Positions 2,584 to 45,155 of a DNA stretch of 46,353 bases are shown in pieces (within the stretch, counting starts at the first letter, position 1; each line of letters opens with the position of its first letter). The stretch spans positions 1-46,353 of the forward strand of contig CAYVDB010000005.1 in assembly GCA_964450705.1 (NCBI GenBank), given 5' to 3'. Made by a program: the position numbers and the translations under genes. Source of the DNA: an uncultured Candidatus Saccharibacteria bacterium. Its GTDB lineage: Bacteria > Patescibacteriota > Minisyncoccia > Phycocordibacterales > Zambryskibacteraceae. The notes beneath the pieces are model-generated. The model had not been told where the DNA came from and ran no database searches. It worked only from the letters and a program-made list of their open reading frames with translations.

Positions 2584-2611
2584 AAAAAGGCCCGTATAAG
2601 TTATACGGGCC
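2584..2611 (-). terminator. Intrinsic terminator for the 2620-2880 ORF
   Basis: GGCCCGTATAA-G-TTATACGGGCC perfect inverted repeat, with an A-tract on the left that gives a U-tail on the minus strand. Confidence 0.8.
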
Positions 2612-2619
2612 CTGAAGCT

Positions 2620-2880
2620 TCACCGTGTCGGGAGATGCTGAAGCACTTGCCGCCTACTCCTCACTTGGAGGAGGGCGGTTCGCCACTCTCCTCGCCACTT
2701 GGCGAGCTCCTGCTCGAATTCGACGCCACCTCCGTGGACAGCGATTGGCCATGCTCGCTCATTGTAGAGCGTGCCGAGCCGATTCTCGCGTTTCCACAGG
2801 AGTTTTGTCACCATCAGATACGAGAGCGTTGCGAGAACCAGCCCGAGGGCGAAAATTCCAAACTTAGTGAGCATCTCCAT
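2620..2880 (-). CDS. Small orphan protein with one N-terminal TM helix (cassette 1)
   Basis: Hydrophobic FGIFALGLVLATLSYLMV; bounded by a consensus promoter upstream and a terminator just past the stop. Confidence 0.65.
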   Translation of the reverse strand: MEMLTKFGIFALGLVLATLSYLMVTKLLWKRENRLGTLYNERAWPIAVHGGGVEFEQELAKWRGEWRTALLQVRSRRQVLQHLPTR

Positions 2881-2920
2881 TTTTGTGGGCGATAGAGGTT
2901 GGAAGGGGCGATCTTTTCCT

Positions 2921-2948
2921 ATTATATCATATATATTATACTTGTCAA
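2921..2948 (-). promoter_or_regulatory. Sigma70 consensus promoter for cassette 1
   Basis: Minus strand TTGACA-16 nt-TATAAT with an extended -10 TG. Confidence 0.8.
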
Positions 2949-3081
2949 TACAATATATTTAACCGGGTTTTTTCTTTGTTTTTACTCCAAAATATTGCTA
3001 TAATAAAGCCCTTAATATTGTTTCTTTAGATAATGTATCCGATCTAAAATGGATACATTATTTATTCCCAAATATTTCCGC

Positions 3082-5133
3082 ATGGCAGAGGAAAAGAAGA
3101 AGAAAAGTGGATATAGCGCTGAGGATATTCAGGTCCTTGAAGGTCTTGATCCTGTCCGAAAACGCCCTGGAATGTATATCGGTACTACTGGCCCAGACGG
3201 CCTTCACCATCTTATTTGGGAGGTATTTGATAACTCTAGAGATGAAGCGATGGGCGGGTTTGCAAACGATATTGAAGTAACGCTTCTTCCTGACAGCCAT
3301 ATCAGAGTGGTTGATAACGGTCGTGGTATCCCGGTTGACGTACATAAACAGACAAAAGTCTCTGCGCTCGAGACCATAATGACGACGCTTCACGCCGGTG
3401 GGAAATTTGGCGGAGAAGGGTATAAGGTTTCAGGAGGCCTTCATGGAGTCGGCGCATCAGTCGTCAACGCTCTTTCGCTTTATACTCGAGCAGAAGTTCA
3501 TCGTGATGGTGGGCGTTTTGTTCAAGAATATAGTAAAGGAAAAAAGAAAGGAGCTGTCAAAAAGATCGAATCTTCGAAAAAGAATGGGACTATTATTACT
3601 TTTCGCCCAGATGAAGAAATATTCCCAGATATCAATTTTGATTTCAATCGAGTAGTAAACCATCTTCGTCAGCAAGCTTATTTGGTAAAAGGGTTACGTA
3701 TTTCTGTGATTGACGCTCGTAAACTAACCGGCCTTAAACACACAGATTGTTTCTACCTTCGCGAGCTTCATCCAGACGCTCCTTCGATGACTTTTTACTT
3801 TGAGGGGGGGCTTCTTTCTTTGGTTAAGTTTTATAATTCGCTTCAAAAGCCAATCCATAAAAATATTTTTTATGTTGAGAAGAAAAGCAACGACTATGAA
3901 TCGGTTGAAGTAAGTTTGCAATATGTAGATGATATTTCTTCTCGCATTGTTCCTTTTGCGAACAATATCTATAACTCTGAAGGGGGAACCCATGTTACTG
4001 GCTTTAAGACTGCTCTTACCAGAAGCCTTAATGCATATGCCCGTAAGAATAACCTTGTAAAGGAAAGCGAGGATAATTTTACTGGAGATGATGTGTTGGA
4101 AGGTCTCACCGCTGTAATATCAGTTAAGATCAGAGAAATCCAATTTGAAGGCCAAACTAAAGCCAAACTTGGGACAGTTGAAGCAAGGTCTCTTGTTGAG
4201 TCTATATTCGGAGATACCTTCGCTACTTTTCTTGAAGAAAATCCTGACGATGCTCGAGCAATCATAAACAAAGTTGTTTTAGCTCTTAAGGCGCGAAAAG
4301 CAGCTAAAGCTGCAAAAGATTCGGTATTGCGCAAGGGCGCTCTTGAAGGGATGACGCTCCCCGGTAAACTTGCTGATTGTCAGTCAAAATCTGCAGAGGA
4401 ATCCGAACTCTTTATTGTGGAGGGAGATTCAGCTGGTGGTACTGCGAAAATGGGTAGAGACAGAAGAATTCAAGCAGTACTTCCACTTCGTGGAAAAATT
4501 TTGAATATTGAGAGGGCTCGTCTTGATCGTATGCTTGCGTCTGAACAGATCAAGAATCTTGTTGTTGCCTTGGGTACTGCAATTGGAGATACTTTTGATA
4601 TTTCAAAACTCCGTTATCACAAAATAATTATTGCAACCGATGCCGATGTTGATGGGGCCCATATTAGGACGCTTCTCCTTACTCTTATTTATCGATTCTT
4701 TAGACCTTTGATTGATGCTGGGAATGTCTATATTGCACAACCTCCACTTTATAAAATTAAAAAAGGGAAGGAGTTATTTTATGCTTATTCAGATGATGAA
4801 AAGCATTCAATTGTAGGTATAGGAGATGTTTCAGAGACGACTGAAGTAGAAGAAGATGCTGAAATTGAAAATGAAGACGAAAAAGAAGAAGAAAAAGATT
4901 CTAAAAAGAAAAACGCCAAAATCTCTATCCAAAGATATAAAGGTCTTGGAGAAATGAACGCGGAAGAATTGTGGGAGACAACTATGGATCCGGAGCGCCG
5001 TATTTTAAAACAAGTTTCAGTTTTGGATGCTCAGGAAGCGGATAAGATATTTGATGTGCTTATGGGAACAGATGTTCCATCTCGAAAAACATTTATTCAG
5101 TCGAATGCGAAGCTCGCGAATCTAGATGTATAA
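3082..5133 (+). CDS. gyrB: DNA gyrase subunit B
   Basis: Motifs VRKRPGMYIG, DNGRGIP, GGLHGVG, EGDSAGG, DADVDG and QRYKGLGEM. Start taken at MAEEKK (3082). Confidence 0.97.
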   Translation: MAEEKKKKSGYSAEDIQVLEGLDPVRKRPGMYIGTTGPDGLHHLIWEVFDNSRDEAMGGFANDIEVTLLPDSHIRVVDNGRGIPVDVHKQTKVSALETIMTTLHAGGKFGGEGYKVSGGLHGVGASVVNALSLYTRAEVHRDGGRFVQEYSKGKKKGAVKKIESSKKNGTIITFRPDEEIFPDINFDFNRVVNHLRQQAYLVKGLRISVIDARKLTGLKHTDCFYLRELHPDAPSMTFYFEGGLLSLVKFYNSLQKPIHKNIFYVEKKSNDYESVEVSLQYVDDISSRIVPFANNIYNSEGGTHVTGFKTALTRSLNAYARKNNLVKESEDNFTGDDVLEGLTAVISVKIREIQFEGQTKAKLGTVEARSLVESIFGDTFATFLEENPDDARAIINKVVLALKARKAAKAAKDSVLRKGALEGMTLPGKLADCQSKSAEESELFIVEGDSAGGTAKMGRDRRIQAVLPLRGKILNIERARLDRMLASEQIKNLVVALGTAIGDTFDISKLRYHKIIIATDADVDGAHIRTLLLTLIYRFFRPLIDAGNVYIAQPPLYKIKKGKELFYAYSDDEKHSIVGIGDVSETTEVEEDAEIENEDEKEEEKDSKKKNAKISIQRYKGLGEMNAEELWETTMDPERRILKQVSVLDAQEADKIFDVLMGTDVPSRKTFIQSNAKLANLDV

Positions 5134-5159
5134 AAAAATGACTCCCTTTCGGGAGTCAT
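5133..5159. terminator. Hairpin terminator between convergent gyrB and cassette 2
   Basis: ATGACTCCC-TTTC-GGGAGTCAT preceded by an A-tract. Confidence 0.8.
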
Positions 5160-5171
5160 GTCTTGTGCGCA

Positions 5172-5384
5172 CTACGACACCTGCTCGAAATTGCAGGCCG
5201 GATGCCAGGAACCACCTTCTTCGAGGGAAATCATCCAACGTCCACGCTTGTGAATGATTCCCCGCACGAGATGTGGGGACGCTCCAGGAATGGAGACGTT
5301 TCTGCGAACCACCTCCTGTCCGATCTGAAAGGGCTGGGCCTGAAGTTCTTCCGGCGAGCTTTCAAGCGGCGTGTCAGCAAGCAT
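5172..5384 (-). CDS. Small orphan protein, possibly a small beta-barrel (cassette 2)
   Basis: GGAGG SD at 5394-5398 (minus), own promoter and terminator. PFQIGQEV...WMISLEEG alternation suggests beta strands. Confidence 0.7.
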   Translation of the reverse strand: MLADTPLESSPEELQAQPFQIGQEVVRRNVSIPGASPHLVRGIIHKRGRWMISLEEGGSWHPACNFEQVS

Positions 5385-5418
5385 GCTTCACTTCCTCCAA
5401 GAAAAGGGTCCGCTACAA

Positions 5419-5447
5419 AGCATATAATTATGTTCCTTAGATGTCAA
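5419..5447 (-). promoter_or_regulatory. Sigma70-like promoter for cassette 2
   Basis: TTGACA-17 nt-TATGCT on the minus strand. Confidence 0.7.
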
Positions 5448-5455
5448 TTTAGAGA

Positions 5456-6694: not shown

Positions 6695-6732
6695 ATTATG
6701 TATGGTATCAGTTGAGAGAAATCTTTTCAAAA

Positions 6733-6761
6733 TTGACTTTTAAGGCTAGGTCTTTTACCCT
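6733..6761 (+). promoter_or_regulatory. Sigma70-like promoter for cassette 3
   Basis: TTGACT-17 nt-TACCCT. Confidence 0.6.
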
Positions 6762-6799
6762 CTAAAAAGAGTTCAGTCACTAACCCAAAAGGAATCTTT

Positions 6800-7126
6800 A
6801 TGACAAGCCTCTCGCTGATGCCCCGTGAAGATATGGAGCGAATATGTTTAAAGCTCCTAGTATTTGCTCTTCAAGTGCCTCCGCTCCATATCGCGAATCA
6901 TCAAGTTGGGAGAGAACGCACCGTGCTTCTTCCTGTTTTGGTCGGGTTTGCGCATAGATTCCAGGCGCTTCTTCAAGAGCATGGACTTGAGGTAGCGAAA
7001 GAGATCGGCGTCTCTCCACGTGATCTTCAGTGGTTTTGCGATAGCCTCGAGGCGTCTTTGGGGGATCGAGATGCTAGATTATTCCAATCAAGATCGATTG
7101 CTGGCTCCGGACACCCGCTTGTTTAG
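6800..7126 (+). CDS. Small orphan protein (cassette 3)
   Basis: AAGGA SD-like sequence at 6789-6793, own promoter, and a terminator overlapping the stop. No family recognised. Confidence 0.65.
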   Translation: MTSLSLMPREDMERICLKLLVFALQVPPLHIANHQVGRERTVLLPVLVGFAHRFQALLQEHGLEVAKEIGVSPRDLQWFCDSLEASLGDRDARLFQSRSIAGSGHPLV

Positions 7127-7138
7127 CGGGTGTTTTTT
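7111..7138 (+). terminator. Intrinsic terminator
   Basis: ACACCCGCT...AGCGGGTGT followed by a T-tract; convergent with the dnaE end. Confidence 0.8.
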
Positions 7139-7144
7139 AAATTT

Positions 7145-10324: not shown

Positions 10325-10409
10325 GGGAATCAGTATACTATGTCTCATTACCTCCAAGTATCTTCACTTCTGTCTTCTGCTATGGCGATGTATACTATAT
10401 GAATCTAGT

Positions 10410-10934: not shown

Positions 10935-10937
10935 TTA

Positions 10938-11522: not shown

Positions 11523-11568
11523 TTTCTCTTCTTGATAAGTCTTATCTTTTAGACTATACTCTTTGATT

Positions 11569-11796
11569 ATGGTTGTACGAATGAGGCATACCCGTTCGCA
11601 TACAGCGAACCGCAGATCTCACCACGCCCTAAAAGGCAAGGGTTTTGCTGTTTGCGCAAATTGCGGCGCAAAGAAGATGAAGCACCGCCTTTGTTCTTCT
11701 TGTGGTAAGTATAAGGACAACGTTGTGGTTGATGTGATTGGTAAAACTGCTCGCAAGGCAGCGAAGAAGAAGGAGAAAGAGAAAACAGGGCGTTAA
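11569..11796 (+). CDS. rpmF: 50S ribosomal protein L32
   Basis: RRSHHAL, then a CxxC...HRLCxxCG zinc ribbon. Confidence 0.93.
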   Translation: MVVRMRHTRSHTANRRSHHALKGKGFAVCANCGAKKMKHRLCSSCGKYKDNVVVDVIGKTARKAAKKKEKEKTGR

Positions 11797-11831
11797 GCCA
11801 AGATTTAATTTTTTAGGTTCTTTATATTTTT

Positions 11832-13786: not shown

Positions 13787-16039
13787 ATGCTCCTCAAGTC
13801 AATAGAGCTCTCCGGATTTAAATCTTTCGCTAAAAAGAGCGAGTTTTTGTTTACGTCTCCTATATCTGCAATTGTGGGCCCTAATGGAAGTGGAAAGTCA
13901 AACGTTGCCGAAGCGTTTCGTTTTGTTTTAGGTGAGCAATCAATAAAATCTCTTCGAGGTAAAAAAGGCGAGGATCTTATCTTTAACGGGGCTTCCGATG
14001 GAGCTCGAGCCAATAGAGCAAGTGTGAAAGTTATCTTTGATAATTCTCGGAGATTTTTAGATATTGATTTTCCAGAAGTATCCATTGAGCGCGTCGTTCA
14101 TAGAGATGGAATTAATGAATATTTTATAAACGGGAGTCTTGTGCGTCTAAAGGATATAGTCGAACTCCTTTCAGGTGCCCATATTGGGGCGTCTGGGCAT
14201 CATATTATTTCTCAAGGAGAAGCTGATAGGATTTTGAATTCAAATGTTCGCGATCGACGTGCAATGATTGAAGATGCTCTTGGTTTAAAAATTTATCAAT
14301 ATAAGAGAGAGGAAAGCGAGCGGAAGCTCGATAAAACTTTAGAAAATATCGCGTCTGTTGAGTCTTTAAGAAGAGAAATAGCACCCCATATAAGATTTCT
14401 AAAAAAACAAGTAGAAAAAATCGAAAAAGCTAAAGAATTAAAGCAGAGCCTTGTTGATCTTGCTCAAGTATATCTTCGACAAGAAGACTTTTTTATTGCA
14501 AATACTCGAAAAGATATCGAAGAGAAGATTGTTTCCTTAGAAAAAAAGAAAGAACTATTTGATAACGAGCTTAGAGAAGTTCGCGATTTACTTGAGAGTT
14601 CTAAGACAAAAGATGCGAAAAGCGAAGAAGTTATAGCTTTAGAGAAAAAGATTCATGATGTTCTAAAGGAAAAAGATACCCTGCTTCAGGATATGGGAAG
14701 GCTACAAGGGAATATTTCTGCTGAGGAGCGTCTCATTGAAAAACAAACAGCAGATGCTTTAAAGGAAGAAAAGGCACTTATTCCGCTTTCTTCACTAAAC
14801 ACTTTCAAGATTTCGCTTGAACAAAAAATCAAAGAAGCGGAAACAACAAATGATATTTCTCGATTGAAGATATTTTTAACTGAAATTCGAGAGTCTCTCG
14901 TAAGCTTCTTTGAGAGTCACAGAACAAACAAGAACGAGGCGAGTTTAAATGATCTCAAGTTGCATGTAGATAATCTTAAAAAAGAAAAAAATGCTGTTGA
15001 AGACCGCCTCAATGCTTGCAGATCCACAGAAGCTCTCTTAGCCAAGGAGAAAACTGCTCTTGAGGAAGTCATTGAAAAAGAAAAAGACAGGAGCCGTGAT
15101 GCAGAGAAGACTCTTTTTCGTATTATGGCTGAGCAAAACAATGTATCAGGCGCTCTTCAGGTCGAATATGGAAGAAGAGAAAGTCTTCTTCTTGTTGAAG
15201 AAGACTTTAAACGAGAAAGGGAAGAATGCGCCCTTCTTGTTGGGCGAGATGTCCTAGAATACCGGGAAAAGGAAGCGTTTGTTGAAGAAAGAAATCTTCA
15301 AGAAGAACGTCGCAGATCGCTTGAAAAATTGAAGATCCGCCTTGAGGATGCTGGCATATCTTCTGGTCAGGATATTTTGAAAGAATATGAAGAAACTTCA
15401 GAACGGGACATCTTTCTAGAGAGAGAACTAGAGGATTTAGTTAAGTCAGCAGAGTCTCTGAGGGCCCTTATAAAAGATCTCGAGACCACCCTTGATACTG
15501 AGTTTAAGGACGGTGTAGAGAAAATAAATTCACAATTTCAAGATTTTTTCTCTTTGATGTTTGGTGGAGGCAACGCCCAGCTTGCTTTAGTTAAGGGGTC
15601 TAATAAACGATTAAAAAAGGACACAGACCTATTATCTTTAGATGTTGAGGATGATGGTTTTATGGAGGAGGCAAATGATGAAGAGGAAGGGATTGATATC
15701 GAAGTATCTTTGCCTAGAAAAAAGATAAAAGGCCTCATGATGCTTTCCGGTGGGGAACGAGCACTTACTTCGATTGCGCTTCTTTTTGCGATGTCTCAAG
15801 TTAAGCCTCCGCCATTCATTATTCTCGATGAGACTGATGCGGCGCTAGATGAAGCAAATTCAAAAAAATATGGAGATATGATAGAGAGTCTATCGAAGTA
15901 TTCACAACTTATACTCATTACTCATAACCGCGAGACGATGTCGCGTGCCGGAGTTATCTACGGGGTGACTATGGGGAATGGTGGTATATCAAAAACTCTT
16001 TCTATCCAGTTTGATGAAGCGATAGCAGTTGCAAAATAA
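13787..16039 (+). CDS. smc: SMC-family ATPase, short form (750 aa)
   Basis: Motifs GFKSF, GPNGSGKSN (Walker A), IISQG (Q-loop), LSGGE, ILDETDAALD and ITH, with a central coiled coil. Located after rnc. Confidence 0.9.
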   Translation: MLLKSIELSGFKSFAKKSEFLFTSPISAIVGPNGSGKSNVAEAFRFVLGEQSIKSLRGKKGEDLIFNGASDGARANRASVKVIFDNSRRFLDIDFPEVSIERVVHRDGINEYFINGSLVRLKDIVELLSGAHIGASGHHIISQGEADRILNSNVRDRRAMIEDALGLKIYQYKREESERKLDKTLENIASVESLRREIAPHIRFLKKQVEKIEKAKELKQSLVDLAQVYLRQEDFFIANTRKDIEEKIVSLEKKKELFDNELREVRDLLESSKTKDAKSEEVIALEKKIHDVLKEKDTLLQDMGRLQGNISAEERLIEKQTADALKEEKALIPLSSLNTFKISLEQKIKEAETTNDISRLKIFLTEIRESLVSFFESHRTNKNEASLNDLKLHVDNLKKEKNAVEDRLNACRSTEALLAKEKTALEEVIEKEKDRSRDAEKTLFRIMAEQNNVSGALQVEYGRRESLLLVEEDFKREREECALLVGRDVLEYREKEAFVEERNLQEERRRSLEKLKIRLEDAGISSGQDILKEYEETSERDIFLERELEDLVKSAESLRALIKDLETTLDTEFKDGVEKINSQFQDFFSLMFGGGNAQLALVKGSNKRLKKDTDLLSLDVEDDGFMEEANDEEEGIDIEVSLPRKKIKGLMMLSGGERALTSIALLFAMSQVKPPPFIILDETDAALDEANSKKYGDMIESLSKYSQLILITHNRETMSRAGVIYGVTMGNGGISKTLSIQFDEAIAVAK

Positions 16040-16067
16040 AACACTAGGCAGCGGGGCCTAGTGTTTT
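16038..16067. terminator. Bidirectional terminator between smc and cassette 4
   Basis: AAAACACTAGGC-AGCGGG-GCCTAGTGTTTT. Confidence 0.85.
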
Positions 16068-16238
16068 CTCCTCTAACAACCTGTTGAAGTGAACACGGTA
16101 TGCTTCCCAGCACTCTATCGGGAGAATGTGGTAGTAGAACTCTTTTCCGTGGTCGTTTACTCGGGCTAGGCCATTTGAGTAGAAAGGTCTAAGACAGTGG
16201 TTACAGATAGTTTCGGGTCTAACGTTTGGCGTTTCCAC
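16044..16238 (-). CDS. Small orphan protein with a putative Zn-binding CxxC...H...C motif (cassette 4)
   Basis: ICNHC...YYH...EC. GTG start with a GGAG SD and a TATACT -10 at 16270-16275; no clear -35. Confidence 0.65.
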   Translation of the reverse strand: METPNVRPETICNHCLRPFYSNGLARVNDHGKEFYYHILPIECWEAYRVHFNRLLEEKTLGPAA

Positions 16239-16286
16239 AGTTTTTCTCCAGAGAAAGAGATCTTCACCTAGTATATCTTTTATACT

Positions 16287-18215
16287 TTAAGATACTAGCG
16301 TGTAATCCAGAATCCTTTTATCTAGATCGGCATTTACAAGTTTTACTTTTACACGGTCACCTAGTGAGAATCGTCTTTTCTTCTCTATGCCTACGATAGA
16401 GTAGGTCTTTTCTTCAAGTATATAAGTGTCGTCAGTTAAATCTCGTAGCTTAATCATCCCTTCCGCTTTTGCGGTTTCCTCTTCAATATATATACCCCAC
16501 TCAGATACACCGGAAACAGTTCCAAAAAATTCCTGCCCAATTTTAGGCAACATGAATTCAACTTGTTTGTATTTGATTGAAGCCCTTTCTGCTTCAGCGG
16601 CAAGGATTTCTCTGTCAGTTGCATCATCTGCGAGCTTCTGAAGTTTAGTAATTTCATCTTGCTGGATTGCGCCTTTATTTAAAAATCTAAATATGAGCCT
16701 ATGAACAATTAGGTCTGGGTAGCGTCTTATAGGGGAGGTGAAGTGGGTATAGTATTCAAAACCAAGACCAAAGTGCCCCACGTTGTTTGTTGAATAGACG
16801 GCTTTAGCCATTGATCGTATGGTCGCTGTTTTTATAAGAGATTCTTCGGGCTTACCCTCAATTTGCTTTAAAAGTGAGTTTAGGTCTTCTGAGGTTACTT
16901 CTCCGTCAGATGCCTCAAGATCGTAGCCAAGAGCTTTTAGGAAAGTGTTTAAATTGATAATCTTTTCTTTGTCCGGAGCATCATGTATGCGGTAAATAAA
17001 AGAGCCTTTGTGTCCATTTTTCTTACCTTCTACATTCATAAAATGAGCAACTTCACGGTTGGCAAGAAGCATATACTCTTCAACAAGTTTATGGGTATCC
17101 TTTCTTTCTTTTCGATATACACGAAGTGGTTTTCCTTCCGCGTCTAATTCGAATTTTATCTCCTCTGTCTCGAATTCAATTGCTCCATTTGCAAACTTTT
17201 CTTCTTTAAGCTTCTTCGCAATTTGATTAAGAGTAGAGAGTTCTTGATAGTAGAGCCCTTCTCCTTTATCTAGAATTTCCTGCGCTTCTTCATAGGTGAA
17301 ACGCTTATCTGAATGAATAACAGTTTTTCCAAACCATCGATCTAGTACCGAACCCTTTTCATTCATGGTAAAAACCGCTCCAAAGGTAAATTTGTCTTCA
17401 TTGGGATTAAGGCTACAGAGATCGTTTGAAAGTATCTCTGGAAGCATTGGGATTGTCCGATCTACCAGGTAGACAGAAGTACCTCTCTTTCTTGCTTCTT
17501 TATCAAGGAGAGACCCCTCTTTTACAAAATGAGAAACATCAGCAATGTGGACTCCAATTTCGTATAATCCGTTCCCAAGATCTTTGTAGGAGATTGCATC
17601 ATCAAAATCTTTTGCATCTACTGGATCAATAGTAAAAGTCAGAGTGTCGCGGAAATCTTTTCTACGAGAGATCTCTTCTTGTCGAAGACTCAACTCCTTC
17701 TGCTTTATCTTTTCTGCTTCCTCCTCGACTTCTTTTGGAAAGGTCGCGTCAAATCCCTTTTCGAGAACGATGGATTCCATTTCGACGTTATGAACCCCCT
17801 TTTTCCCGAGAACCTTTAGGACTTCACCTTCTGGGCTTTTAAGGGGATCTTTCCATCCTATTATTTGCGCAAATACCTTTTCACCCTTTTTTGCTCCGAG
17901 TGCTTTTGAAGAGTGAATAAAGATATCACGGTACATCCTTCTATCATCTGTTTTTAGAAAGAAGAAATCATTTGTGTCGTTACCCTCTAGGACTCCTACG
18001 AAAGTCGTTTTTGCTCTTTTGTTAATGGAAATAACCTCTCCTTGCTCTCTGTCGTTTTCTTTTTGTGGCAGTAATTTTATAGTTACCTCATCTCCGTGTA
18101 GCCCAGTTTTTAGCCGAGAAGGCTGTATCTCAATATCTTGCTCTTTCTCGGGTACGGTAAAGTAGCCAACTCCACGTCCACTTACCGAAAGCGTTCCTGT
18201 ATAAGTATTTTCCAT
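16287..18215 (-). CDS. rnr: Ribonuclease R
   Basis: Cold-shock domains, RNB motifs TIDPVDAKDFDDA, HIADVS and YTHFTSPIRRYPDL, and a C-terminal S1 domain. Confidence 0.95.
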   Translation of the reverse strand: MENTYTGTLSVSGRGVGYFTVPEKEQDIEIQPSRLKTGLHGDEVTIKLLPQKENDREQGEVISINKRAKTTFVGVLEGNDTNDFFFLKTDDRRMYRDIFIHSSKALGAKKGEKVFAQIIGWKDPLKSPEGEVLKVLGKKGVHNVEMESIVLEKGFDATFPKEVEEEAEKIKQKELSLRQEEISRRKDFRDTLTFTIDPVDAKDFDDAISYKDLGNGLYEIGVHIADVSHFVKEGSLLDKEARKRGTSVYLVDRTIPMLPEILSNDLCSLNPNEDKFTFGAVFTMNEKGSVLDRWFGKTVIHSDKRFTYEEAQEILDKGEGLYYQELSTLNQIAKKLKEEKFANGAIEFETEEIKFELDAEGKPLRVYRKERKDTHKLVEEYMLLANREVAHFMNVEGKKNGHKGSFIYRIHDAPDKEKIINLNTFLKALGYDLEASDGEVTSEDLNSLLKQIEGKPEESLIKTATIRSMAKAVYSTNNVGHFGLGFEYYTHFTSPIRRYPDLIVHRLIFRFLNKGAIQQDEITKLQKLADDATDREILAAEAERASIKYKQVEFMLPKIGQEFFGTVSGVSEWGIYIEEETAKAEGMIKLRDLTDDTYILEEKTYSIVGIEKKRRFSLGDRVKVKLVNADLDKRILDYTLVS

Positions 18216-18256: not shown

Positions 18257-18284
18257 TTGACATACCTGTTTTTTACTCTAACCT
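18257..18284 (+). promoter_or_regulatory. Sigma70-like promoter for cassette 5
   Basis: TTGACA-16 nt-TAACCT. Confidence 0.65.
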
Positions 18285-18319
18285 TTATAGAAGACAATCC
18301 TTGAAGGGAGGGTAATCCT

Positions 18320-18532
18320 ATGGCGAGCGCTCTTTTCTCTTTTGAAACACCAGCGAATACTCTGCTTACTGAATTGGCAGAACTAGACGGAGTAGGCAAA
18401 ACAGAAGTTCTCCGGCGCTCTTTGATGCTCTATCATTTTCTTCGTAGAGAGATGAGAGACCAGGGGCTTCAGTCTGGCGCAAAGGTTGGTTTTGAAGTCG
18501 GGAACAAAAAGATTGACGTGGTAATACCTTAG
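18320..18532 (+). CDS. Small protein, probable ribbon-helix-helix (CopG-like) DNA-binding fold (cassette 5)
   Basis: ALFSF strand followed by LTELAELDGVGKTEVLRRSLMLY helix-turn-helix pattern. GGGAGG SD at 18306-18311. Confidence 0.65.
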   Translation: MASALFSFETPANTLLTELAELDGVGKTEVLRRSLMLYHFLRREMRDQGLQSGAKVGFEVGNKKIDVVIP

Positions 18533-18536
18533 CTTC

Positions 18537-18559
18537 AGAGACCCTTTAGGGGGTCTTTT
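18537..18559 (+). terminator. Intrinsic terminator
   Basis: AGAGACCC...GGGTCTTTT hairpin with a T-tract just after the stop. Confidence 0.75.
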
Positions 18560-18609
18560 CTTTACTTACAGCATTGACTCCTAATAAGACACCTGTTACT
18601 ATAGCCCCC

Positions 18610-19092
18610 ATGTTAAAAATTCGTTTGCAAAGAGTGGGCAGGAAACACGAACCAACTTTTCGTGTGGTTTTGACTGACTCAAAAAATAGCCCAAAAAGCG
18701 GACGATTCTTAGACGTTCTCGGATCATACGATCCACGTAAAAAAGGTGAGGTGTTCAACGGAGATAAAATTAAACATTGGATGAGCCATGGAGCTCAACT
18801 TTCTGACACTCTTCGAAATCTTCTCATTACTCACAAAGTTATCGAGGGCAAGAAAAAGAATGTTCTCCCTAAAAAGAGTCCTGTTGTAGACGAAGAGAAA
18901 CTTGCTCAAGAAAAGGCGGCGGCCGAAGAAGCTCTCCGAAAGGCAGAAGAAGAGAAAAAGGCAAAAGAAGAGGCTGATAAACTTGCTCAGGCAGAAGAAG
19001 AGAAAAAGGAAGAAGCTTCCCCAGAAGTTTTAGAGGAGGGTGCAGAGACTGTAGAAACTCCAGAAGTAAAAACAGAAGAAGCGACAAGTTAA
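18610..19092 (+). CDS. rpsP: 30S ribosomal protein S16 with an acidic C-terminal extension
   Basis: Motifs MLKIRLQRVG, FRVVLTDS, LGSYDP and GAQLSDT. Promoter TTGACT-17-TACTAT ends 7 nt before the ATG. Confidence 0.95.
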   Translation: MLKIRLQRVGRKHEPTFRVVLTDSKNSPKSGRFLDVLGSYDPRKKGEVFNGDKIKHWMSHGAQLSDTLRNLLITHKVIEGKKKNVLPKKSPVVDEEKLAQEKAAAEEALRKAEEEKKAKEEADKLAQAEEEKKEEASPEVLEEGAETVETPEVKTEEATS

Positions 19093-19553: not shown

Positions 19554-19588
19554 AAAGACAGACCACCCTTACGGGGTGGTCTTGTTTT
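19553..19588. terminator. Bidirectional terminator between khpA and cassette 6
   Basis: GACCACCC-TTACG-GGGTGGTC flanked by A- and T-tracts. Confidence 0.8.
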
Positions 19589-19778
19589 CCGTTTGCTCGG
19601 GCTCTGCCCCAGGTTGGGTACCCTTGATTGCAGCGACGATTTCATCTGTTGCCAAGTTCAGAGCAAGTATCAAAAAAGCTGCAGCTGTCAAAGGCGGGAA
19701 TACATCTCGGTCGCTGATGAGCCCAAGAAAGAAAGTCCCAAACAGGGTCAGATATCTGTAGCTTTTGAACGAAAACAT
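19569..19778 (-). CDS. Small orphan membrane protein (cassette 6)
   Basis: Two hydrophobic segments. GGAG SD at 19785-19788 and a consensus promoter. Confidence 0.7.
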   Translation of the reverse strand: MFSFKSYRYLTLFGTFFLGLISDRDVFPPLTAAAFLILALNLATDEIVAAIKGTQPGAEPEQTENKTTP

Positions 19779-19800
19779 GGAATACTCCGAGTGAGGGTTC

Positions 19801-19835
19801 TTGACTTATTATAGCATAATATAGTAGCATGTCAA
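19801..19835. promoter_or_regulatory. Fully overlapping divergent promoters (cassette 6 on minus, trmD on plus)
   Basis: Minus: TTGACA(19830-19835)-16-TATAAT(19808-19813). Plus: TTGACT(19801-19806)-18-TAGCAT(19825-19830), 7 nt before the trmD ATG. Confidence 0.7.
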
Positions 19836-30783: not shown

Positions 30784-30809
30784 AAAAATAACCCATCGAG
30801 AAGATGGGT
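30782..30809. terminator. Hairpin terminator between convergent rpoD and cassette 7
   Basis: ACCCATC-GAGAA-GATGGGT preceded by an A-tract. Confidence 0.7.
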
Positions 30810-31003
30810 CAGAAGAGAAACTCCAGTAGCATTCCGATGAAAAGAAATGACATGCCACCAAGGAATGTAAGGAAACCTCTTCTGGCTTGGTATTTGTAGA
30901 TCGTGCCTTGTTGTGCCCGATTTAGATATATGACGTACATGAGGCTACCCAGCACAGAAATCAAGGCGATTACATAGCATGTTCTCGTTGCAAAAAAGAG
31001 CAC
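30809..31003 (-). CDS. Small orphan membrane protein with two TM helices (cassette 7)
   Basis: Hydrophobic VIALISVLGSLMYVIYL and FLTFLGGMSFLFIGMLLEFLF. GTG start with a GGAGG SD at 31009-31013. Confidence 0.7.
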   Translation of the reverse strand: MLFFATRTCYVIALISVLGSLMYVIYLNRAQQGTIYKYQARRGFLTFLGGMSFLFIGMLLEFLF

Positions 31004-31030
31004 CCCGTCCTCCAGAGAAAGTCTCTGTAA

Positions 31031-31058
31031 TTTCTAACACTTATTTCAAAAAAGTCAA
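31031..31058 (-). promoter_or_regulatory. Sigma70-like promoter for cassette 7
   Basis: TTGACT-16 nt-TAGAAA with an upstream TG. Confidence 0.55.
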
Positions 31059-38333: not shown

Positions 38334-38361
38334 TTGACTTTTCATAAAAATTAAGTATTGT
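38334..38361 (+). promoter_or_regulatory. Sigma70-like promoter for cassette 8
   Basis: TTGACT-16 nt-TATTGT. Confidence 0.6.
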
Positions 38362-38403
38362 TTTGTTGGATTTTGCTCACATAACCCTTTTCAAGAGGAA
38401 AAA

Positions 38404-38949
38404 ATGAGTGATGCTTGGGCAGAAATGTCTTTGGGCTATCTTCAGGATCTTGAAGAAGCTCATCAAAGAGGAGTGCTTCCTTCTCGAGAGAAGTTCCAAG
38501 CGCTCCTCGGTCTCGAACTCGAACTTCGGGTTCGAGTAGACTATGATCTCTCGATCCGCGAACTTCTCTCAACTTTCTCGAACAGCTTGGTTATTGAGGA
38601 GGAAGTAGAGGAATCGGACATCTACGCAGAGCGCGTAGGGCCTGGGTCTGGGCTTCGTATGGTAAACATGAGGCCCGTGGACCCTGGTAAACTTCTCAGC
38701 GTAGATGATTTTGAGAGCGTTCTTCCCCCAGGTCAGAAATATGCGACTCTTGGAGAAGGGCTCCATTTTCTGAAACGAAACCACGGCTCTCGTGCACTCG
38801 GCCCTCTCATCATGGTGCACCAGTTTTCTTCCGGGCGTCGTATGGCGGTTTTTGTTGGAAGCCGTTCTGGGGGAGAAGTTTCTGCTGTACGTTTCAGGCC
38901 TCGTGATCTCAAGTGGAAAGGTTGCCGGCATCTCATTGTTTCTCCTTGA
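38404..38949 (+). CDS. Orphan protein, 181 aa (cassette 8)
   Basis: GAGGA SD, own promoter and terminator; visibly more GC-rich than its flanks. No family recognised. Confidence 0.75.
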   Translation: MSDAWAEMSLGYLQDLEEAHQRGVLPSREKFQALLGLELELRVRVDYDLSIRELLSTFSNSLVIEEEVEESDIYAERVGPGSGLRMVNMRPVDPGKLLSVDDFESVLPPGQKYATLGEGLHFLKRNHGSRALGPLIMVHQFSSGRRMAVFVGSRSGGEVSAVRFRPRDLKWKGCRHLIVSP

Positions 38950-38957
38950 ATTGAAGC

Positions 38958-38983
38958 AAAAACCCCGACTAGGTCGGGGTTTC
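38958..38983. terminator. Bidirectional terminator between cassette 8 and typA
   Basis: AAACCCCGAC-TAG-GTCGGGGTTT. Confidence 0.85.
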
Positions 38984-40854: not shown

Positions 40855-41088
40855 ATGGAAAATCCTTTTCAAGGTCTACCGGAGGTTTCTCTTTCTATTG
40901 GCAAGCCAGTACTGTGGGGTTTCTTTGTGTTATTTTTTATTGGATATTCTATTATCTCAGGCGTTCTTGTATATCACTGGAAGAAGTACGGGATGAGTAA
41001 CAAGACCATTATATTTGCCCAAGGGTTATTTATCGTCGTGTCTATTATCTTATTTGCAATAACATTTGGAGCCCTTTCTCTTATCTAA
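40855..41088 (+). CDS. Small two-TM membrane protein
   Basis: Two hydrophobic helices around YHWKKYG; first gene of a tightly spaced plus-strand run. Confidence 0.75.
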   Translation: MENPFQGLPEVSLSIGKPVLWGFFVLFFIGYSIISGVLVYHWKKYGMSNKTIIFAQGLFIVVSIILFAITFGALSLI

Positions 41089-43575: not shown

Positions 43576-43618
43576 GCTAAATAGACTTCGATCTAAAAAT
43601 GGGGCACTATAGATGAGT

Positions 43619-44872
43619 ATGACCGAATATCATATTCTTTTTGGGAACCGCCTTTCTGAATCTTGGCAATCTCTATCTCGCGAAGAATTCTTGGGATTCC
43701 TTAGACCTAAAGTAGAAACAGCTCTAACGTGGGAAGAGCTTGAAGAAAAACTCGGAGAGAATCGAGTTCTTAACATAAAGCTCGGAATTGATCCAACTGG
43801 AGCAGAACTTCACTTGGGCCATTTAGTTCCGGTACTTCTTCTTAATCAATTTTTAAGAGCAGGACACCACATCGATTTTGTAATTGGAGATTTTACTGCA
43901 CGAATAGGAGACCCCTCTGGCAGAGATTCTCAACGTACTCCATTAACAACTGAAGATATTGAAAAAAATTTCAAAACATATACCGAACAGGTTGCGCCAT
44001 ATCTGGATATATCCAAAGTTTCTGTTCGCAAGAATAGAGAATGGCTTTCAAAAATGACATTAGAAGAGCTCTTTCCTCTTTTACAGGGAGTTAATCTTAG
44101 AGAAGCAACTCAAAGAGAAGACTTTAGGGCCCGGCTAAAAAACCAAGAGGGAGTGAGTCTTGCAGAAGCCACTTACGGAGTACTTATGGGCATTGATTCT
44201 GTCGAACTAAAGACCGATGTAGAACTCGGGGGCATTGATCAGCTTCTAAATTTTCAACAGTGTCGTTCGGTACTTCTTGCGTGCGGGCTTCCTAGAGAAG
44301 TTGCACTTACTACGCCTATCCTTTTAGGAACCGCCGGAGATGGGCGAAAGATGAGTAAGAGTTTCGGTAATTATATTCCACTATCTGCGTCTCTTGAGGA
44401 CAAATTCGGAAAAATTATGTCTATACCAGATTCTTTGCTGTTGCCTTACTTTCTAAGTTTTGCTGATGTTCACGAGAAAGAAGTTTCTGATTTGAAAGAT
44501 TTTATCGCTAAAAATCCACTTGAAGCAAAAAAGCAACTAGGAACGTTCTTGGTGTTTCTTGAAACAAGAGATATGGAAAAAGCTCTCCAAGAGCGAGACA
44601 AATTTGAGAGAAAGTTTTCTAGGGGAGATTTAAATCCTGAAGATGTAGTAAGCATTTCTGCCAAAGGAGACGAGTCAATTTTTGATATTCTTACTCAACA
44701 TATAGGAGAGAGTAAGAGTGAGCTAAGGAGATTGTTTGCACAAGGTGCAGTCTCTTCTCTATTTTCTAATGGCGAGAAAGAAGCAATTTCTCCAGATGTT
44801 AAGGCAAACGAACTTCAGTCAGATTTGGTTAAGGTAGGGAAGTATAATCTATTTAAAATAAATATAGAATAA
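43619..44872 (+). CDS. tyrS: Tyrosine-tRNA ligase (divergent)
   Basis: Motifs KLGIDPT...LHLGH, IGDFTARIGDPSGR, ELGGIDQ and KMSKS, plus an S4-like C-terminus. Start at 43613 or 43619. Confidence 0.9.
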   Translation: MTEYHILFGNRLSESWQSLSREEFLGFLRPKVETALTWEELEEKLGENRVLNIKLGIDPTGAELHLGHLVPVLLLNQFLRAGHHIDFVIGDFTARIGDPSGRDSQRTPLTTEDIEKNFKTYTEQVAPYLDISKVSVRKNREWLSKMTLEELFPLLQGVNLREATQREDFRARLKNQEGVSLAEATYGVLMGIDSVELKTDVELGGIDQLLNFQQCRSVLLACGLPREVALTTPILLGTAGDGRKMSKSFGNYIPLSASLEDKFGKIMSIPDSLLLPYFLSFADVHEKEVSDLKDFIAKNPLEAKKQLGTFLVFLETRDMEKALQERDKFERKFSRGDLNPEDVVSISAKGDESIFDILTQHIGESKSELRRLFAQGAVSSLFSNGEKEAISPDVKANELQSDLVKVGKYNLFKINIE

Positions 44873-44905
44873 AAACTCTGAGAGGTGGCGAACCCCTCAG
44901 AGTTT
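44871..44905. terminator. Bidirectional terminator between tyrS and cassette 9
   Basis: AAACTCTGAG...CTCAGAGTTT inverted repeat. Confidence 0.75.
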
Positions 44906-45087
44906 CATTTCACAGGTGTTAGTTCGGAATTGCCAACAGGGAAAACTGTACCATCTTGAAACCGAACAAGCCATGTTCGCCTGTCGATTTTTCTTTCGAT
45001 AGTGACAATTTCGTCTCTGTGCCAGAGAGATTGTGTCACCGATCTAAAAGTGGCGGTTGAACTCTCCCTCAAGACATTCTCAGGCAT
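44905..45087 (-). CDS. Small orphan protein, possibly SH3-like (cassette 9)
   Basis: IVTIERKID..TWLVRFQDG..PV..SEL pattern. GGAG SD at 45093-45096. Confidence 0.65.
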   Translation of the reverse strand: MPENVLRESSTATFRSVTQSLWHRDEIVTIERKIDRRTWLVRFQDGTVFPVGNSELTPVK

Positions 45088-45126
45088 AGGCTCTCCGTAT
45101 GGGGTAAGAACTTATTCCTATATTGA

Positions 45127-45155
45127 ACTATGCTAGAAATATAGTCTTTGGTCAA
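45127..45155 (-). promoter_or_regulatory. Sigma70-like promoter for cassette 9
   Basis: TTGACC-17 nt-CATAGT. Confidence 0.5.

Follow-up and report, generated by a model that had tools for sequence, protein, structure and literature searches.

GC-rich single-gene units with predicted expression signals of their own among SD-less core genes in a Zambryskibacteraceae genome

A Parcubacteria subgroup that is poor in anti-SD sequences and lacks uL1 is reported in PMC9297842, and most individually transferred Patescibacteria genes come from other Patescibacteria according to PMC12455944. The genome analyzed here (G000) is a tiny Parcubacteria genome of 634 kb in 37 contigs, assigned to the Zambryskibacteraceae. 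The family matches the former subgroup in two respects. CCTCC was absent from the 16S tail and the next 400 nt in both relatives with a recovered 16S (G005 and G010), and uL1 was not found in any of five genomes, while the control was found in 14 of 14. Since the 16S of G000 and of its congener G001 is unassembled, it is from these relatives and the uL1 absence that anti-SD loss appears probable in the genus itself. We analyzed a stretch of 46,353 nt of contig CAYVDB010000005.1 (hereafter, the window), in which a sequence-only reading had proposed nine small, unrelated ORFs of one layout, reminiscent of phage morons. The observation was confirmed, and its interpretation was supported in part.

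Expression signals of nine small ORFs in the window

All nine ORFs were present in a mechanical ORF list (Table 1). Each was preceded by a −35/−10 pair that ended 27–42 nt before the start codon and had a spacer of 16–17 nt, and the −10 positions imply putative leaders of roughly 20–35 nt, short as had been claimed. The −35 hexamer was TTGACA in four cases, TTGACT in three and TTGACC in one, with c16044 as the only departure, and the −10 boxes ranged from perfect (c2620 and c19569) to poor (TACCCT, TAACCT and TAGAAA). An SD-like site, defined as GGAG, GAGG or AGGA at positions −17 to −4, was found in 8/9 candidates, the exception being c2620, and in 0/32 other window genes (Fisher p=9e-8). Under a strict terminator rule (stem of at least 7 bp, at least 4 GC pairs, at least 5 T in 8), 8/9 candidates had a hairpin, with energies of −11.5 to −21.5 kcal/mol, compared with 1/32 other window genes, namely khpA by way of the c19569 hairpin (Fisher p=8e-7). 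The hairpin of c16044, which spans the stop codon, is followed by ATTTTG and sits immediately past the end of smc on the opposite strand, was recognized by eye; the strict rule missed it because the T run was counted into the stem. A hairpin at or past the stop in every unit thus held, but its usual sharing with a convergent core gene was clear only for c19569 and khpA, and by eye for c16044 with smc and c38404 with typA.

Table 1. Coordinates of the nine candidate units and of one core gene start given for contrast
Unit	Span	Strand	ORF	Promoter	SD	Terminator hairpin
c2620	2587..2948	−	2620-2880, 86 aa, GC.58, N-terminal hydrophobic segment	TTGACA-16-TATAAT, 2921-2948	none	2587-2613
c5172	5138..5447	−	5172-5384, 70 aa, GC.57	TTGACA-17-TATGCT, 5419-5447	GGAGG	5138-5159
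c6800	6733..7135	+	6800-7126, 108 aa, GC.505	TTGACT-17-TACCCT, 6733-6761	AAGGA (SD-like)	7109-7135, overlaps stop codon
c16044	16038..16306	−	16044-16238, 64 aa, CxxC...CW motif	ATTACA-16-TATAAA (weak), about 16279-16306	GGAG	16038-16067, 12 bp, by eye
c18320	18257..18558	+	18320-18532, 70 aa, between divergent rnr and rpsP	TTGACA-16-TAACCT, 18257-18284	GGGAGGG	18537-18558
c19569	19560..19835	−	19569-19778, 69 aa, hydrophobic segment, splits khpA from trmD	TTGACA-16-TATAAT with TG extension, 19808-19835	GGAG	19560-19582, common to khpA on other strand
c30809	30789..31058	−	30809-31003, GTG start, 64 aa, two hydrophobic segments, GC.43	TTGACT-16-TAGAAA, about 31031-31058	GGAGG	about 30789-30811
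c38404	38334..38982	+	38404-38949, 181 aa, GC.51	TTGACT-16-TATTGT, 38334-38361	GAGGA	38960-38982
c44905	44872..45155	−	44905-45087, 60 aa, GC.45	TTGACC-17-CATAGT, 45127-45155	GGAG	about 44872-44906 (−21.5 kcal/mol)
rpsP start (contrast)	18574..18612	+	ATG at 18610	TTGACT-17-TACTAT, 7 nt before ATG	none	

SD and terminator together occurred in 0/109 further window ORFs of at least 55 aa, mostly shadow frames, and the AT-rich small orphan orf77 (40855-41088) had neither. In a shuffle comparison over positions 1-20000, terminator-like sites exceeded expectation (37 vs 17.9), and the strongest ones were those of the candidates. The total of promoter-like sites was not above chance (34 vs 39.8), but the six sites with at least 10/12 matches all preceded genes (three candidates, smc, rnr and rpmF). 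The claimed GC contrast was borne out: GC was.431-.579 in the candidates, with a median of.487, and.348-.470 in the other genes, with a median of.395 (Mann-Whitney p=1e-5). As had also been stated, no integrase or transposase domain was found by Pfam in 30 non-candidate window ORFs, nor in rpmF or orf221. No tRNA was detected in the window, and Rfam gave no match there, either at the gathering score or at E<=1. That the nine are unrelated agrees with a blastp comparison of the GC-rich set, which gave no matches at E<=1e-4 among the included window ORFs; this set covered at most 5/9 candidates, because three had too low a GC for inclusion and an opposite-strand ORF stood in for c2620. The normal linkage of khpA and trmD, interrupted here by c19569, was also verified: at 12 of 19 scorable family loci the two genes were at most 180 nt apart with no ORF of at least 35 aa between them.

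Two signal classes across the genome and family

The pattern proved specific neither to small ORFs nor to the window. In gene sets from a crude longest-ORF caller, which include shadow frames and wrong starts, the GC-rich class of G000 amounted to about 105 ORFs, roughly 15% of the set, and ranged from 60 to 700 aa (median 123 aa), a range that does not fit the small-protein programme suggested earlier. Its SD motifs were textbook AGGAGG with a sharp peak 7–12 nt before the start. GGAG or GAGG at −12 to −7 occurred 0.51 times per GC-rich ORF (n=107) vs 0.01 per core ORF (n=447) in G000, 0.50 (n=88) vs 0.02 (n=483) in G001, and 0.39 (n=54) vs 0.03 (n=200) in contig 1 of G005; a strict SD count in G019 gave 20% (n=44) vs 2.5% (n=285). 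The split thus recurred in three further family genomes, making four with the class in all. Of 60 strong terminators in G000, 41 belonged to ORFs with GC of at least.46. Terminators followed 12/36 convergent GC-rich stops vs 3/88 core stops, and promoters with at least 10/12 matches were present in 14/37 GC-rich vs 7/80 core divergent gaps. These data agree with the earlier proposal of a second, stereotyped expression class.

Core genes showed a different start: a −10 box 6–11 nt before the ATG and no SD. The −10 peak at 6–8 nt reached 0.13-0.20 per core ORF over a background of about.03 and was missing from the GC-rich class. Such boxes lay 6–10 nt before an ATG of rnr, khpA, trmD, a proS-like gene, dnaE, rpmF, an addA-like gene, hisS and an exonuclease gene, and the layout at rpsP (Table 1) was kept between G000 and G001. 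Because of this spacing, core mRNAs appear to be leaderless, with translation probably starting at the 5′ end, and such a regime fits the anti-SD loss in the 16S of family relatives.

These contrasts bear on whether the nine are ordinary small hypothetical genes with a generic monocistronic promoter/RBS/terminator layout and no special class behind them. Each signal is indeed textbook sigma-70, SD or intrinsic terminator, good −35/−10 pairs are present at core genes as well (smc with 11/12, rnr, rpmF), and the congener keeps 6/9 of the ORFs in place. In this genome, however, the generic layout is the exception: besides the window counts and the bare orf77, an SD precedes only 12/447 core ORFs, and core stops seldom carry terminators. 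The ordinary-gene explanation is already largely refuted, and we regard it as improbable.

Coding constraint, conservation and turnover

Positional orthologues in G001 were found for six of the nine ORFs, three clear and three faint, so that inheritance at genus level, not fresh capture, applies to these six. The clear pairs showed an excess of differences at the third codon position: c5172 (64% identity; differences by codon position 21/16/40; SD and terminator both kept), c6800 (57%; 36/29/71) and c38404 (52% in the A1 alignment, 50.5% by tblastn; 64/59/114). At the sites of the faint pairs, G001 has same-strand ORFs: one of 112 aa for c16044 (z=5.8; score equalled in 0/500 shuffles), one of 55 aa for c19569 (z=3.9; 0/500), and one of 62 aa for c30809, with hydrophobic stretches and without an SD (z=3.5; 3/500). 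The c18320 site is empty in G001, where 78 nt separate the rnr and rpsP matches, whereas in G011, which belongs to another genus, this gap contains a 38%-identical homologue; the AF2 model of c18320 is of low confidence (pLDDT 64.5), with two helices and a beta-hairpin. Nothing similar to c2620 was seen in syntenic G001 stretches, in which a 210-aa Clp_N-repeat gene occupies the site.

Relatives were few. A search of 1.84 billion representatives gave two relatives for c2620, a twin with 97% identity and a distant protein of 201 aa, and among 5.8 billion proteins c5172 matched one other only, at 63% identity. Of 86 family genomes, only G000 and G001 had c6800, apart from one marginal match (E=0.006), and the ESM Atlas gave no usable match. 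No match to c19569 was found among 40 relatives at E<=0.01; by eye, the C-terminal ends of two tandem G011 ORFs look similar to it. For c44905, no homologue was detected in syntenic G001 stretches, in 40 relatives or, by word-indexed search, in 5.8 billion proteins, and its putative coding status derives only from its expression signals.

The protein of c38404 belongs, as a distant member, to a family of roughly 200 aa that is restricted to Patescibacteria. It has a confident AF2 model (pLDDT 87.6) with a C-type-lectin-like fold, and DGR variable proteins were among the best fold matches (TvpA, Z 6.6; Mtd, Z 5.5). In G017, one protein of the family is targeted by a DGR. Relatives occur at non-syntenic places in seven other genomes; GC was.54-.62 in 5/6 fetched loci (.41 in the sixth, L013), and the flanks of the GC-rich loci had GC of.33-.46 in 4/5. 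The family thus appears to behave as a mobile one.

The third-position excess in three pairs, together with the c38404 fold, is evidence that the ORFs code for protein. Structured non-coding RNA genes with incidental ORFs would be a natural thought, given that a GC-rich island with promoter and terminator is what an RNA gene typically looks like in an AT-rich genome, and that both strands are open in c2620 and c5172. This is scarcely credible, since the excess lies in the annotated frames, the SD stands at the correct distance, the c38404 protein model is confident, and the window lacks tRNA and Rfam matches.

Across the genome, a G001 homologue was found for 85-89% of ORFs with GC.36-.44 vs 21% at GC >.52, and median orthologue amino-acid identity was 54.8% for GC-rich vs 74.6% for core ORFs. 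Of 107 GC-rich ORFs, 24 matched G001, eight matched G005 contig 1 and seven matched other G000 ORFs (five of them core or mid-GC ORFs, and one reciprocal GC-rich pair). The 51 G001 GC-rich ORFs of at least 100 aa matched eleven Pfam families; at most 12 had a domain and about 40 had none. The 82 GC-rich runs comprised 64 single ORFs, 14 pairs, three triples and one quadruple. Of 35 species-specific sites, nine were empty in G001 and 17 held a different GC-rich ORF there, and the rnr-rpsP and khpA-trmD gaps likewise carry different GC-rich ORFs in different genera. Single occurrence, deviant composition and site turnover fit the moron-like picture. They do not make a family of related elements: terminator stems differed in sequence, no flanking repeats, integrase or other insertion trace was seen, and the one empty site aligned had no target duplication. 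Evidence was found neither for a stage-specific role or one in host interaction nor for a gene-capture mechanism targeting terminators.

Chimeric insertion of GC-rich pieces from other metagenome organisms during assembly or binning was also considered, as the assembly is of metagenome type in 37 contigs and shows foreign composition in contig C35 (GC.67) and at the ends of C11 and C16. The C16 end is a DGR target gene. The islets, however, lie inside contigs and are bounded by core genes at gene scale, three to six of the nine are found at corresponding sites of the congener, whose assembly is independent, with proteins 50–64% identical, and four genomes share the class, so that such an artefact is very improbable.

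Origin and use of the units

We favor, with a probability of about 0.55, the reading that the nine are a local sample of a genome-wide, horizontally acquired class of single accessory genes forming a second, leadered expression class; that they are real, separately transcribed genes is part of this joint estimate. A unit would consist of a sigma-70 −35/−10 promoter, a leader of about 20–35 nt, a canonical AGGAGG-type SD 6–9 nt before the start, the ORF itself and an intrinsic terminator of high strength. Most units stand alone in the gaps that separate core transcription units. Members would be GC-rich, fast-evolving, mostly orphan accessory genes, set against core genes with leaderless mRNAs, no SD and few intrinsic terminators.

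Some observations speak against transfer. Most members lack any homologue, whereas genes transferred recently from sequenced lineages would be expected to have one, and no donor was identified for the GC-rich units. Six of the nine have a positional orthologue in the congener, and GC-rich orthologues remain GC-rich in both species (.498/.506) despite saturated synonymous sites, which simple amelioration of foreign DNA would not predict.

The maintained GC, and the presence of the class in 4/4 family genomes examined, would suit an endogenous functional division, with leaderless initiation for housekeeping and SD-dependent initiation for fast-evolving lineage-specific genes, the SD being read by a non-canonical partner or a 16S variant still unassembled. 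Despite diverged leaders, 6/7 orthologue pairs between G000 and G001 kept the SD, as did 5/5 of those with the same start, and it was no rarer in shared (14/37) than in unshared ORFs (26/68). Retention and age-independent frequency suggest an SD in use, and this is difficult to square with an anti-SD-less host. Against this division stand the 16S tails of the two relatives, a motif scan of three genomes that gave no stand-alone anti-SD RNA candidate, and a turnover (nine empty sites, non-syntenic c38404 copies) that points to gain and loss; SD selection was tested in one genus only, that with the unassembled 16S. We consider the endogenous explanation possible but doubtful.

Under the favored reading of horizontal acquisition, single genes would have entered from a pool of higher GC in which SDs are used, probably that of other Patescibacteria or their mobile elements, and would have brought their own expression signals. 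They would be quickly gained, replaced and lost at permissive intergenic slots, while some would persist and then be inherited vertically. If the endogenous explanation were true instead, the two signal classes would mean separate control of an accessory gene set.

Signals and inheritance of nine small genes in the window

The genome assembly to which the window belongs as contig 5 (G000) has 634,332 bp in 37 contigs and a GC content of 40.9%. The large genes of the window are housekeeping genes, namely pheT, gyrB, a class II aminoacyl-tRNA synthetase (aaRS) gene, dnaE, rnhB, rpmF, nusB-NUDIX, rnc, smc, rnr, rpsP, khpA, trmD, rpoB, rpoC, dnaG, rpoD, an AddA-like helicase gene, uppP, hisS, typA, truB, mscL and tyrS. 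All nine small ORFs that the sequence-only reading had placed among them, here named by their start coordinates (c2620, c5172, c6800, c16044, c18320, c19569, c30809, c38404 and c44905), were present. Signals were scored with one script, applied identically to every gene of the window, in which a promoter was a −35/−10 pair with at least 8 of 12 matches, ending 15–60 nt upstream. Such a pair preceded all nine units. The predicted TTGAC[A/T/C] −35 element was found in eight, with spacers of 16–17 nt, and a Shine-Dalgarno (SD)-like site likewise in eight, as had been claimed. A hairpin at the stop had been described for all nine; the strict terminator rule recovered eight, and the ninth (c16044) was recognized by eye only, because its 12-bp hairpin lies across the stop codon with the T run partly within the stem. 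Among the 32 other window genes, none had an SD site and one had a terminator, and none of 109 further window ORFs of at least 55 aa combined the two signals. A consensus scan of positions 1–20000 returned 37 terminator-like sites against 17.9 in shuffled sequence, the strongest being those of the units themselves. The units were also more GC-rich than their flanks (.43–.58, median.487, versus.35–.47, median.395, for the other window genes). The layout was thus accurately described, and it goes far beyond what chance would produce. The 77-aa orphan ORF listed in the table is of the AT-rich, ‘native’ type, so some small orphans lie outside the class. The window contained no tRNA gene and no Rfam match even at E ≤ 1, and RNA genes were rejected as an explanation of the nine units; the terminators could not be treated as copies of one repeated element, since their stems are diverse in sequence.

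The window is collinear with the genome of a congener (G001) at 65–80% DNA identity. Full-length syntenic orthologues of c5172, c6800 and c38404 were found there, with 64, 57 and 52% identity, respectively, and differences at codon positions 1/2/3 of 21/16/40, 36/29/71 and 64/59/114, indicating that these three genes are coding, under purifying selection and saturated at synonymous sites. At the sites of c16044, c19569 and c30809, G001 carries a small ORF on the same strand with faint similarity, the score of which was reached by 0, 0 and 3 of 500 shuffles, respectively. The c18320 gene is absent from G001, where the rnr and rpsP matches lie 78 nt apart, and a homologue with 38% identity occupies the rnr–rpsP gap of another genus. 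The c2620 site of G001 is occupied by a gene for a 210-aa protein with Clp_N repeats. Relatives of c44905 were found neither in the syntenic stretches of G001, nor in 40 relatives, nor in a word-indexed search of 5.8 billion proteins; the c5172 sequence itself was absent among the proteins returned from that collection.

Searches with the nine ORFs gave three sub-threshold matches in Pfam and none in NCBIfam. PHROGs gave two marginal matches at E ~0.05 and none below E = 0.048. No usable match to c6800 was obtained in the ESM Atlas. Hydrophobic segments are present in c2620, c19569 and c30809. Inspection of the c18320 sequence by eye had raised the idea of a ribbon-helix-helix (RHH) regulator or antitoxin, a type of protein in which an N-terminal β-strand precedes two helices. 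No passing match to RHH families was found in Pfam, NCBIfam or PHROGs, and the low-confidence AF2 model (pLDDT 64.5) contains helices at residues 10–23 and 27–48, with the N-terminus unmodelled. A PDB profile search with c18320 returned designed helical repeat proteins only and was taken as spurious.

The AF2 model of c38404 (pLDDT 87.6) has a C-type-lectin-like fold. Almost all of its top 50 structural matches are CLec/FGE-type domains with middling Z scores (4.6–6.8), and they include two variable proteins of diversity-generating retroelements (DGRs), TvpA (Z 6.6, rmsd 4.1, 132 aligned residues) and Mtd (Z 5.5); the Foldseek E value was ~0.07. G001 aside, a profile of c38404 and its orthologue found relatives of ~200 aa in 3 of 150 other genomes of the order and 3 of 85 other genomes of the family. 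None of the six loci outside G000 and G001 is syntenic, and five of them, L013 being the exception, are GC-rich islets (e.g..62 between genes of.36–.43). The wider family comprises 35 database members, all hypothetical, and those with a named source are all from Patescibacteria, Parcubacteria or Taylorbacteria. At one locus (L011), the family gene has a variable repeat/template repeat (VR/TR) pair and a reverse transcriptase (RT) gene downstream. Of 49 mismatches in the full 180-nt alignment, 25 fall at TR adenines, and in its well-aligned part nearly all of them do, judged by eye. The c38404 protein resembles DGR variable proteins in its predicted fold and in having a profile relative with adenine-specific VR/TR and an adjacent RT. 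It differs in that its 3′ 300 nt have no second copy in G000 that could serve as TR and no RT lies nearby, the only RT/DGR of G000 being on contig C16 with a different target (table). For these reasons, the best reading of c38404 is a protein of the DGR-target type that no longer belongs to a DGR.

A conserved 5′ leader of ~75 nt with hairpin potential, beginning GCTRTGGCGACA, accompanies the family genes of other Parcubacteria at loci L011, L012, L007, L008 and L013, and a conserved stretch just after the stop codon is found at L011, L012 and L009. A structured leader or a sequence for DGR homing would be possible explanations. Neither feature is present at c38404 in the window.

Coordinates of features in the window, in other contigs of G000 (C1, C11, C16, C35) and at loci with c38404-family genes (L011, L012)
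Feature	Contig or locus	Positions	Description
PheRS β ORF	window	2–1906	NlpC/P60 peptidase domain (aa 206–301, E = 1e-16) between B3_4 and B5
Peptidase_C39_2 ORF	window	1903–2472	overlaps end of PheRS β ORF
203-aa ORF	window	10323–10934	N-terminal methylation (type IV pilin-like) motif; overlaps dnaE start region, opposite strand
77-aa orphan ORF	window	40855–41088	GC.37; no Pfam match; no SD, no terminator
Complete DGR	C16	1–2419	target gene runs off contig start
VR	C16	431–540	
TR	C16	935–1045	only A-to-G changes in aligned core
Avd-like ORF	C16	1051–1413 (−)	
RT	C16	1391–2419 (+)	342 aa
c38404-family gene	L011	1300–2060	conserved 5′ leader
c38404-family gene	L012	1310–2080	conserved 5′ leader
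ARAGORN tRNA	C1	complement 8171–8248	anticodon UUA (‘tRNA-Stop’); possible UAA suppressor or false call
Short GC-rich stretch	C35	1–1763	GC.67 (whole genome 41%); possible contamination or chimeric contig end
Short GC-rich stretch	C11	1–460	GC.67; possible contamination or chimeric contig end

The GC-rich class across the genome and its turnover

Gene sets for the whole genome were made with a crude longest-ORF caller, shadow frames included, and compared with all of G001; at c2620 the caller picked the incorrect strand, and at the target of the C16 DGR an incorrect frame. Contig C35 was excluded from class counts. In the GC-rich ORFs (about 105 genome-wide), GGAG/GAGG occurred 0.51 times per ORF at −12 to −7, with no spike in any other 6-nt bin between −60 and +30, whereas in the core ORFs the profile was flat at 0.01–0.06 across all bins. 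Since the core profile shows no rise to either side of the predicted starts, wrong start calls cannot conceal SD sites of core genes. The sites in the GC-rich ORFs are textbook AGGAGG, 6–9 nt before the start, and by a strict count they precede 40 of 105 GC-rich versus 12 of 447 core ORFs (Fisher p = 5e-22). Terminators followed 12 of 36 GC-rich versus 3 of 88 core genes with a convergent neighbour, and promoters with at least 10 of 12 matches were found in divergent gaps for 14 of 37 versus 7 of 80. Among 60 strong terminators of G000, 41 belong to ORFs with a GC content of at least.46. On this contrast in SD sites, terminators and promoters, the explanation first favoured, that the units are ordinary vertically inherited small genes, was dropped. 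The SD peak was likewise present in GC-rich and absent in core ORFs of G001 and of two other genomes of the family (G005 and G019); the split is a family trait.

The proportion of ORFs with a homologue in G001 fell with GC content, from 85–89% at.36–.44 to 48% at.44–.48, 41% at.48–.52 and 21% above.52. The second, stereotyped expression class proposed earlier is real, but it marks a flexible gene pool and not small proteins; GC-rich ORFs are up to 699 aa long (median 123 aa). Pfam searches with 51 GC-rich G001 ORFs of at least 100 aa identified 11 families (NUDIX, with two members, ThyA, DHFR, GTP_EFTU, Clp_N, ParB_N, ClpP, Band_7, T4SS pilin, GRDP-like and DUF815) and left about 40 ORFs domain-free.

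Genome-wide, GC-rich ORFs occur as 64 singles, 14 pairs, 3 triples and 1 quadruple, in keeping with the description of units that sit singly. Both empty and differently filled sites were found. Of 35 G000-specific GC-rich sites with collinear flanks in G001, 9 are empty there (<300 nt), 5 hold another ORF, 4 have no ORF of at least 60 aa, and 17 hold a different GC-rich ORF, some of which may be orthologues diverged past recognition, as the case of c16044 suggests. The alignment of the c18320 site with the empty site of G001 revealed no target duplication. The rnr–rpsP gap in which c18320 lies is at most 154 nt long in 11 of 17 loci, and the remaining six contain relatives of c18320 (two) or unrelated ORFs (four, three of them GC-rich). 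Of the 19 loci of the family that could be scored, 12 show khpA and trmD directly linked with no ORF between them, as is said to be the normal state, and in the other seven minus-strand or other ORFs separate the two genes; the minus-strand ORFs look hydrophobic in G000, G001 and, by eye, several other genera. Any match at all was found for 24 of 107 GC-rich ORFs in G001 and for 8 in contig 1 of G005, and the congeners G005 and G019, with a core identity of 66.5%, have only two GC-rich pairs in common. Seven GC-rich ORFs match other ORFs of G000, five of these matching core or mid-GC ORFs, plus one reciprocal GC-rich pair.

Core gene starts and the 16S rRNA tail

The words enriched upstream of the core ATG are those of a −10 box (TATAA, ATAAT and TACTA), and a T/G/T/A/A/T periodicity was seen at −15 to −7. 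TATAAT-like hexamers ending 6–8 nt before the start occurred at 0.13, 0.13 and 0.20 per core ORF in G000, G001 and G005, respectively, over a background of ~.03; the GC-rich class lacks this peak. At rpsP, the arrangement TTGACT-17-TACTAT is followed by 7 nt and the ATG, and is kept in G001; rnr, khpA, trmD and hisS are further window genes with such a start. A −10 box just before the start is the signature of leaderless transcription described in the GeneMarkS-2 preprint (10.1101/193490). Judged by the position of the motif, the core genes appear to fit this leaderless-type (group C) organization, with a −10 box and no ribosome-binding site. An alternative core SD, complementary to a changed 16S tail, was rejected, the enriched upstream 5-mers being −10-box words instead.

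In the 16S rRNA genes of G005 and G010, representing two genera, the tail lacks CCTCC, and none occurs within the next 400 nt; the tail after helix 45 reads GTAATTCAATT at both loci (L089 and L090), without an anti-SD. A strong intrinsic terminator lies ~220 nt past this tail at both loci. The ribosomal protein uL1 (PF00687) was not found in G000, G001, G005, G010 or G019, with a control of 14/14. Tsurumaki et al. (2022, PMC9297842) describe the anti-SD motif as missing in a subgroup of Parcubacteria that overlaps the uL1-less group, while about half of Parcubacteria keep it. The −10-box starts of the core genes thus fit a ribosome of this kind. For the genus of G000 itself, we infer anti-SD loss from these relatives, the 16S rRNA genes of G000 and G001 being unassembled. 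As for a stand-alone anti-SD RNA, a scan of G000, G001 and contig 1 of G005 for 9-mers that include the canonical anti-SD yielded nothing but coding sites, SD complements and the end of a tRNA-Ser. An unusual tRNA call on contig C1 is listed in the table.

The group C genomes of the GeneMarkS-2 preprint (10.1101/193490) share with this family the Pribnow box 6–8 nt from the start of first genes of operons and the occurrence of both leaderless and SD-led genes within a genome. In the Actinobacteria and Deinococcus described there, however, the anti-SD has been retained and an SD also precedes core genes and genes inside operons, whereas here SD sites are confined to GC-rich accessory genes and the 16S rRNA of relatives lacks CCUCC. 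Parcubacteria are not listed in the available text of that preprint, and atypical genes are there usually GC-poorer. The uL1-less Parcubacteria (PMC9297842) agree with this family in the CCTCC-free 16S tail, as seen in G005 and G010, and in the missing uL1, but the features treated in the available text are those of rRNA and ribosomal proteins, with nothing on mRNA signals, leaderless core genes or an SD-bearing subset. A full-text search of a literature collection found no paper on Parcubacteria or Patescibacteria that describes core genes as leaderless or a GC-rich subset as SD-bearing, although supplements may hold per-lineage anti-SD tables.

Origin and meaning of the GC-rich units

A phage moron is an autonomous promoter–gene–terminator unit between conserved phage genes. 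The likeness to morons that had been proposed holds for the promoter of its own, the terminator, the deviant composition, and the insertion of single genes, present or absent between relatives, between conserved genes. It fails for the surroundings, the flanks being gyrB, dnaE, smc, rnr, rpsP, trmD, rpoD, typA and tyrS. The units do not lie in a prophage and have no phage genes nearby. They occur throughout the chromosome, in a symbiont-type genome of 634 kb, and their GC content is above that of the host, not below it. Integron cassettes are promoterless ORFs with an attC site, arrayed beside an intI integrase. They too are single-gene units that differ between relatives at one site, but the present units are dispersed and have their own promoters. 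The window yielded no integrase domain, in line with the sequence-only reading, and the hairpins, unrelated in sequence and followed by T runs, are terminator-like. The horizontally acquired atypical genes and islets reported in Patescibacteria (PMC12455944) are similar in deviant composition, patchy distribution, lower conservation and single-gene scale. They differ from the present units, which are GC-richer than the host, mostly homologue-free and uniform in their foreign-type signals, with an SD that appears conserved and not decaying.

The most economical origin would be horizontal entry of single-gene units carrying donor-type signals. Entry would occur at the few places that a 634-kb genome tolerates, the gaps between transcription units, and would be followed by rapid gain, replacement and loss, some units then being vertically inherited. 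Single-gene transfer in Patescibacteria is reported to take place mostly within the group (PMC12455944), and SD-using donors exist within Parcubacteria, because about half of them keep the anti-SD (PMC9297842). Against units that are simply relics of such transfer, and in favour of a functional second expression regime, the SD is kept in six of seven G000–G001 orthologue pairs with otherwise diverged leaders (in one genus), and is equally frequent in shared and species-specific members. Moreover, GC-richness persists in both species beyond synonymous saturation, and no donors are visible. Because these four facts resist a simple relic reading, we put horizontal origin at roughly 55%, and regard a functional second regime as rather unlikely. 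It would be still bolder, and we consider it improbable, that a lineage without anti-SD and with leaderless core translation nevertheless keeps, by selection, canonical SD sites on a separate GC-rich accessory set. If true, either something other than the 16S 3′ tail reads the SD, giving a switchable second translation regime, or the units are built for the canonical ribosomes of another cell, e.g. the host of this episymbiont, comparable to the plant signals on T-DNA genes.

Parcubacteria are abundant and uncultured, and their gene expression is little studied. If the split holds, GC content, SD and terminator on one side versus a −10 box at the ATG on the other would be a simple sequence rule parting the flexible pool from the core. 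It may also help explain uncalled accessory genes such as c5172, given that single-model gene callers miss atypical genes (GeneMarkS-2 preprint, 10.1101/193490), and would connect leaderless initiation with the anti-SD loss reported for the group. A further question is what role an SD has where the ribosome is unable to pair with it, and what reads it. The accessory set, mostly orphans and including several membrane proteins, would be a natural place to seek host-interaction functions.
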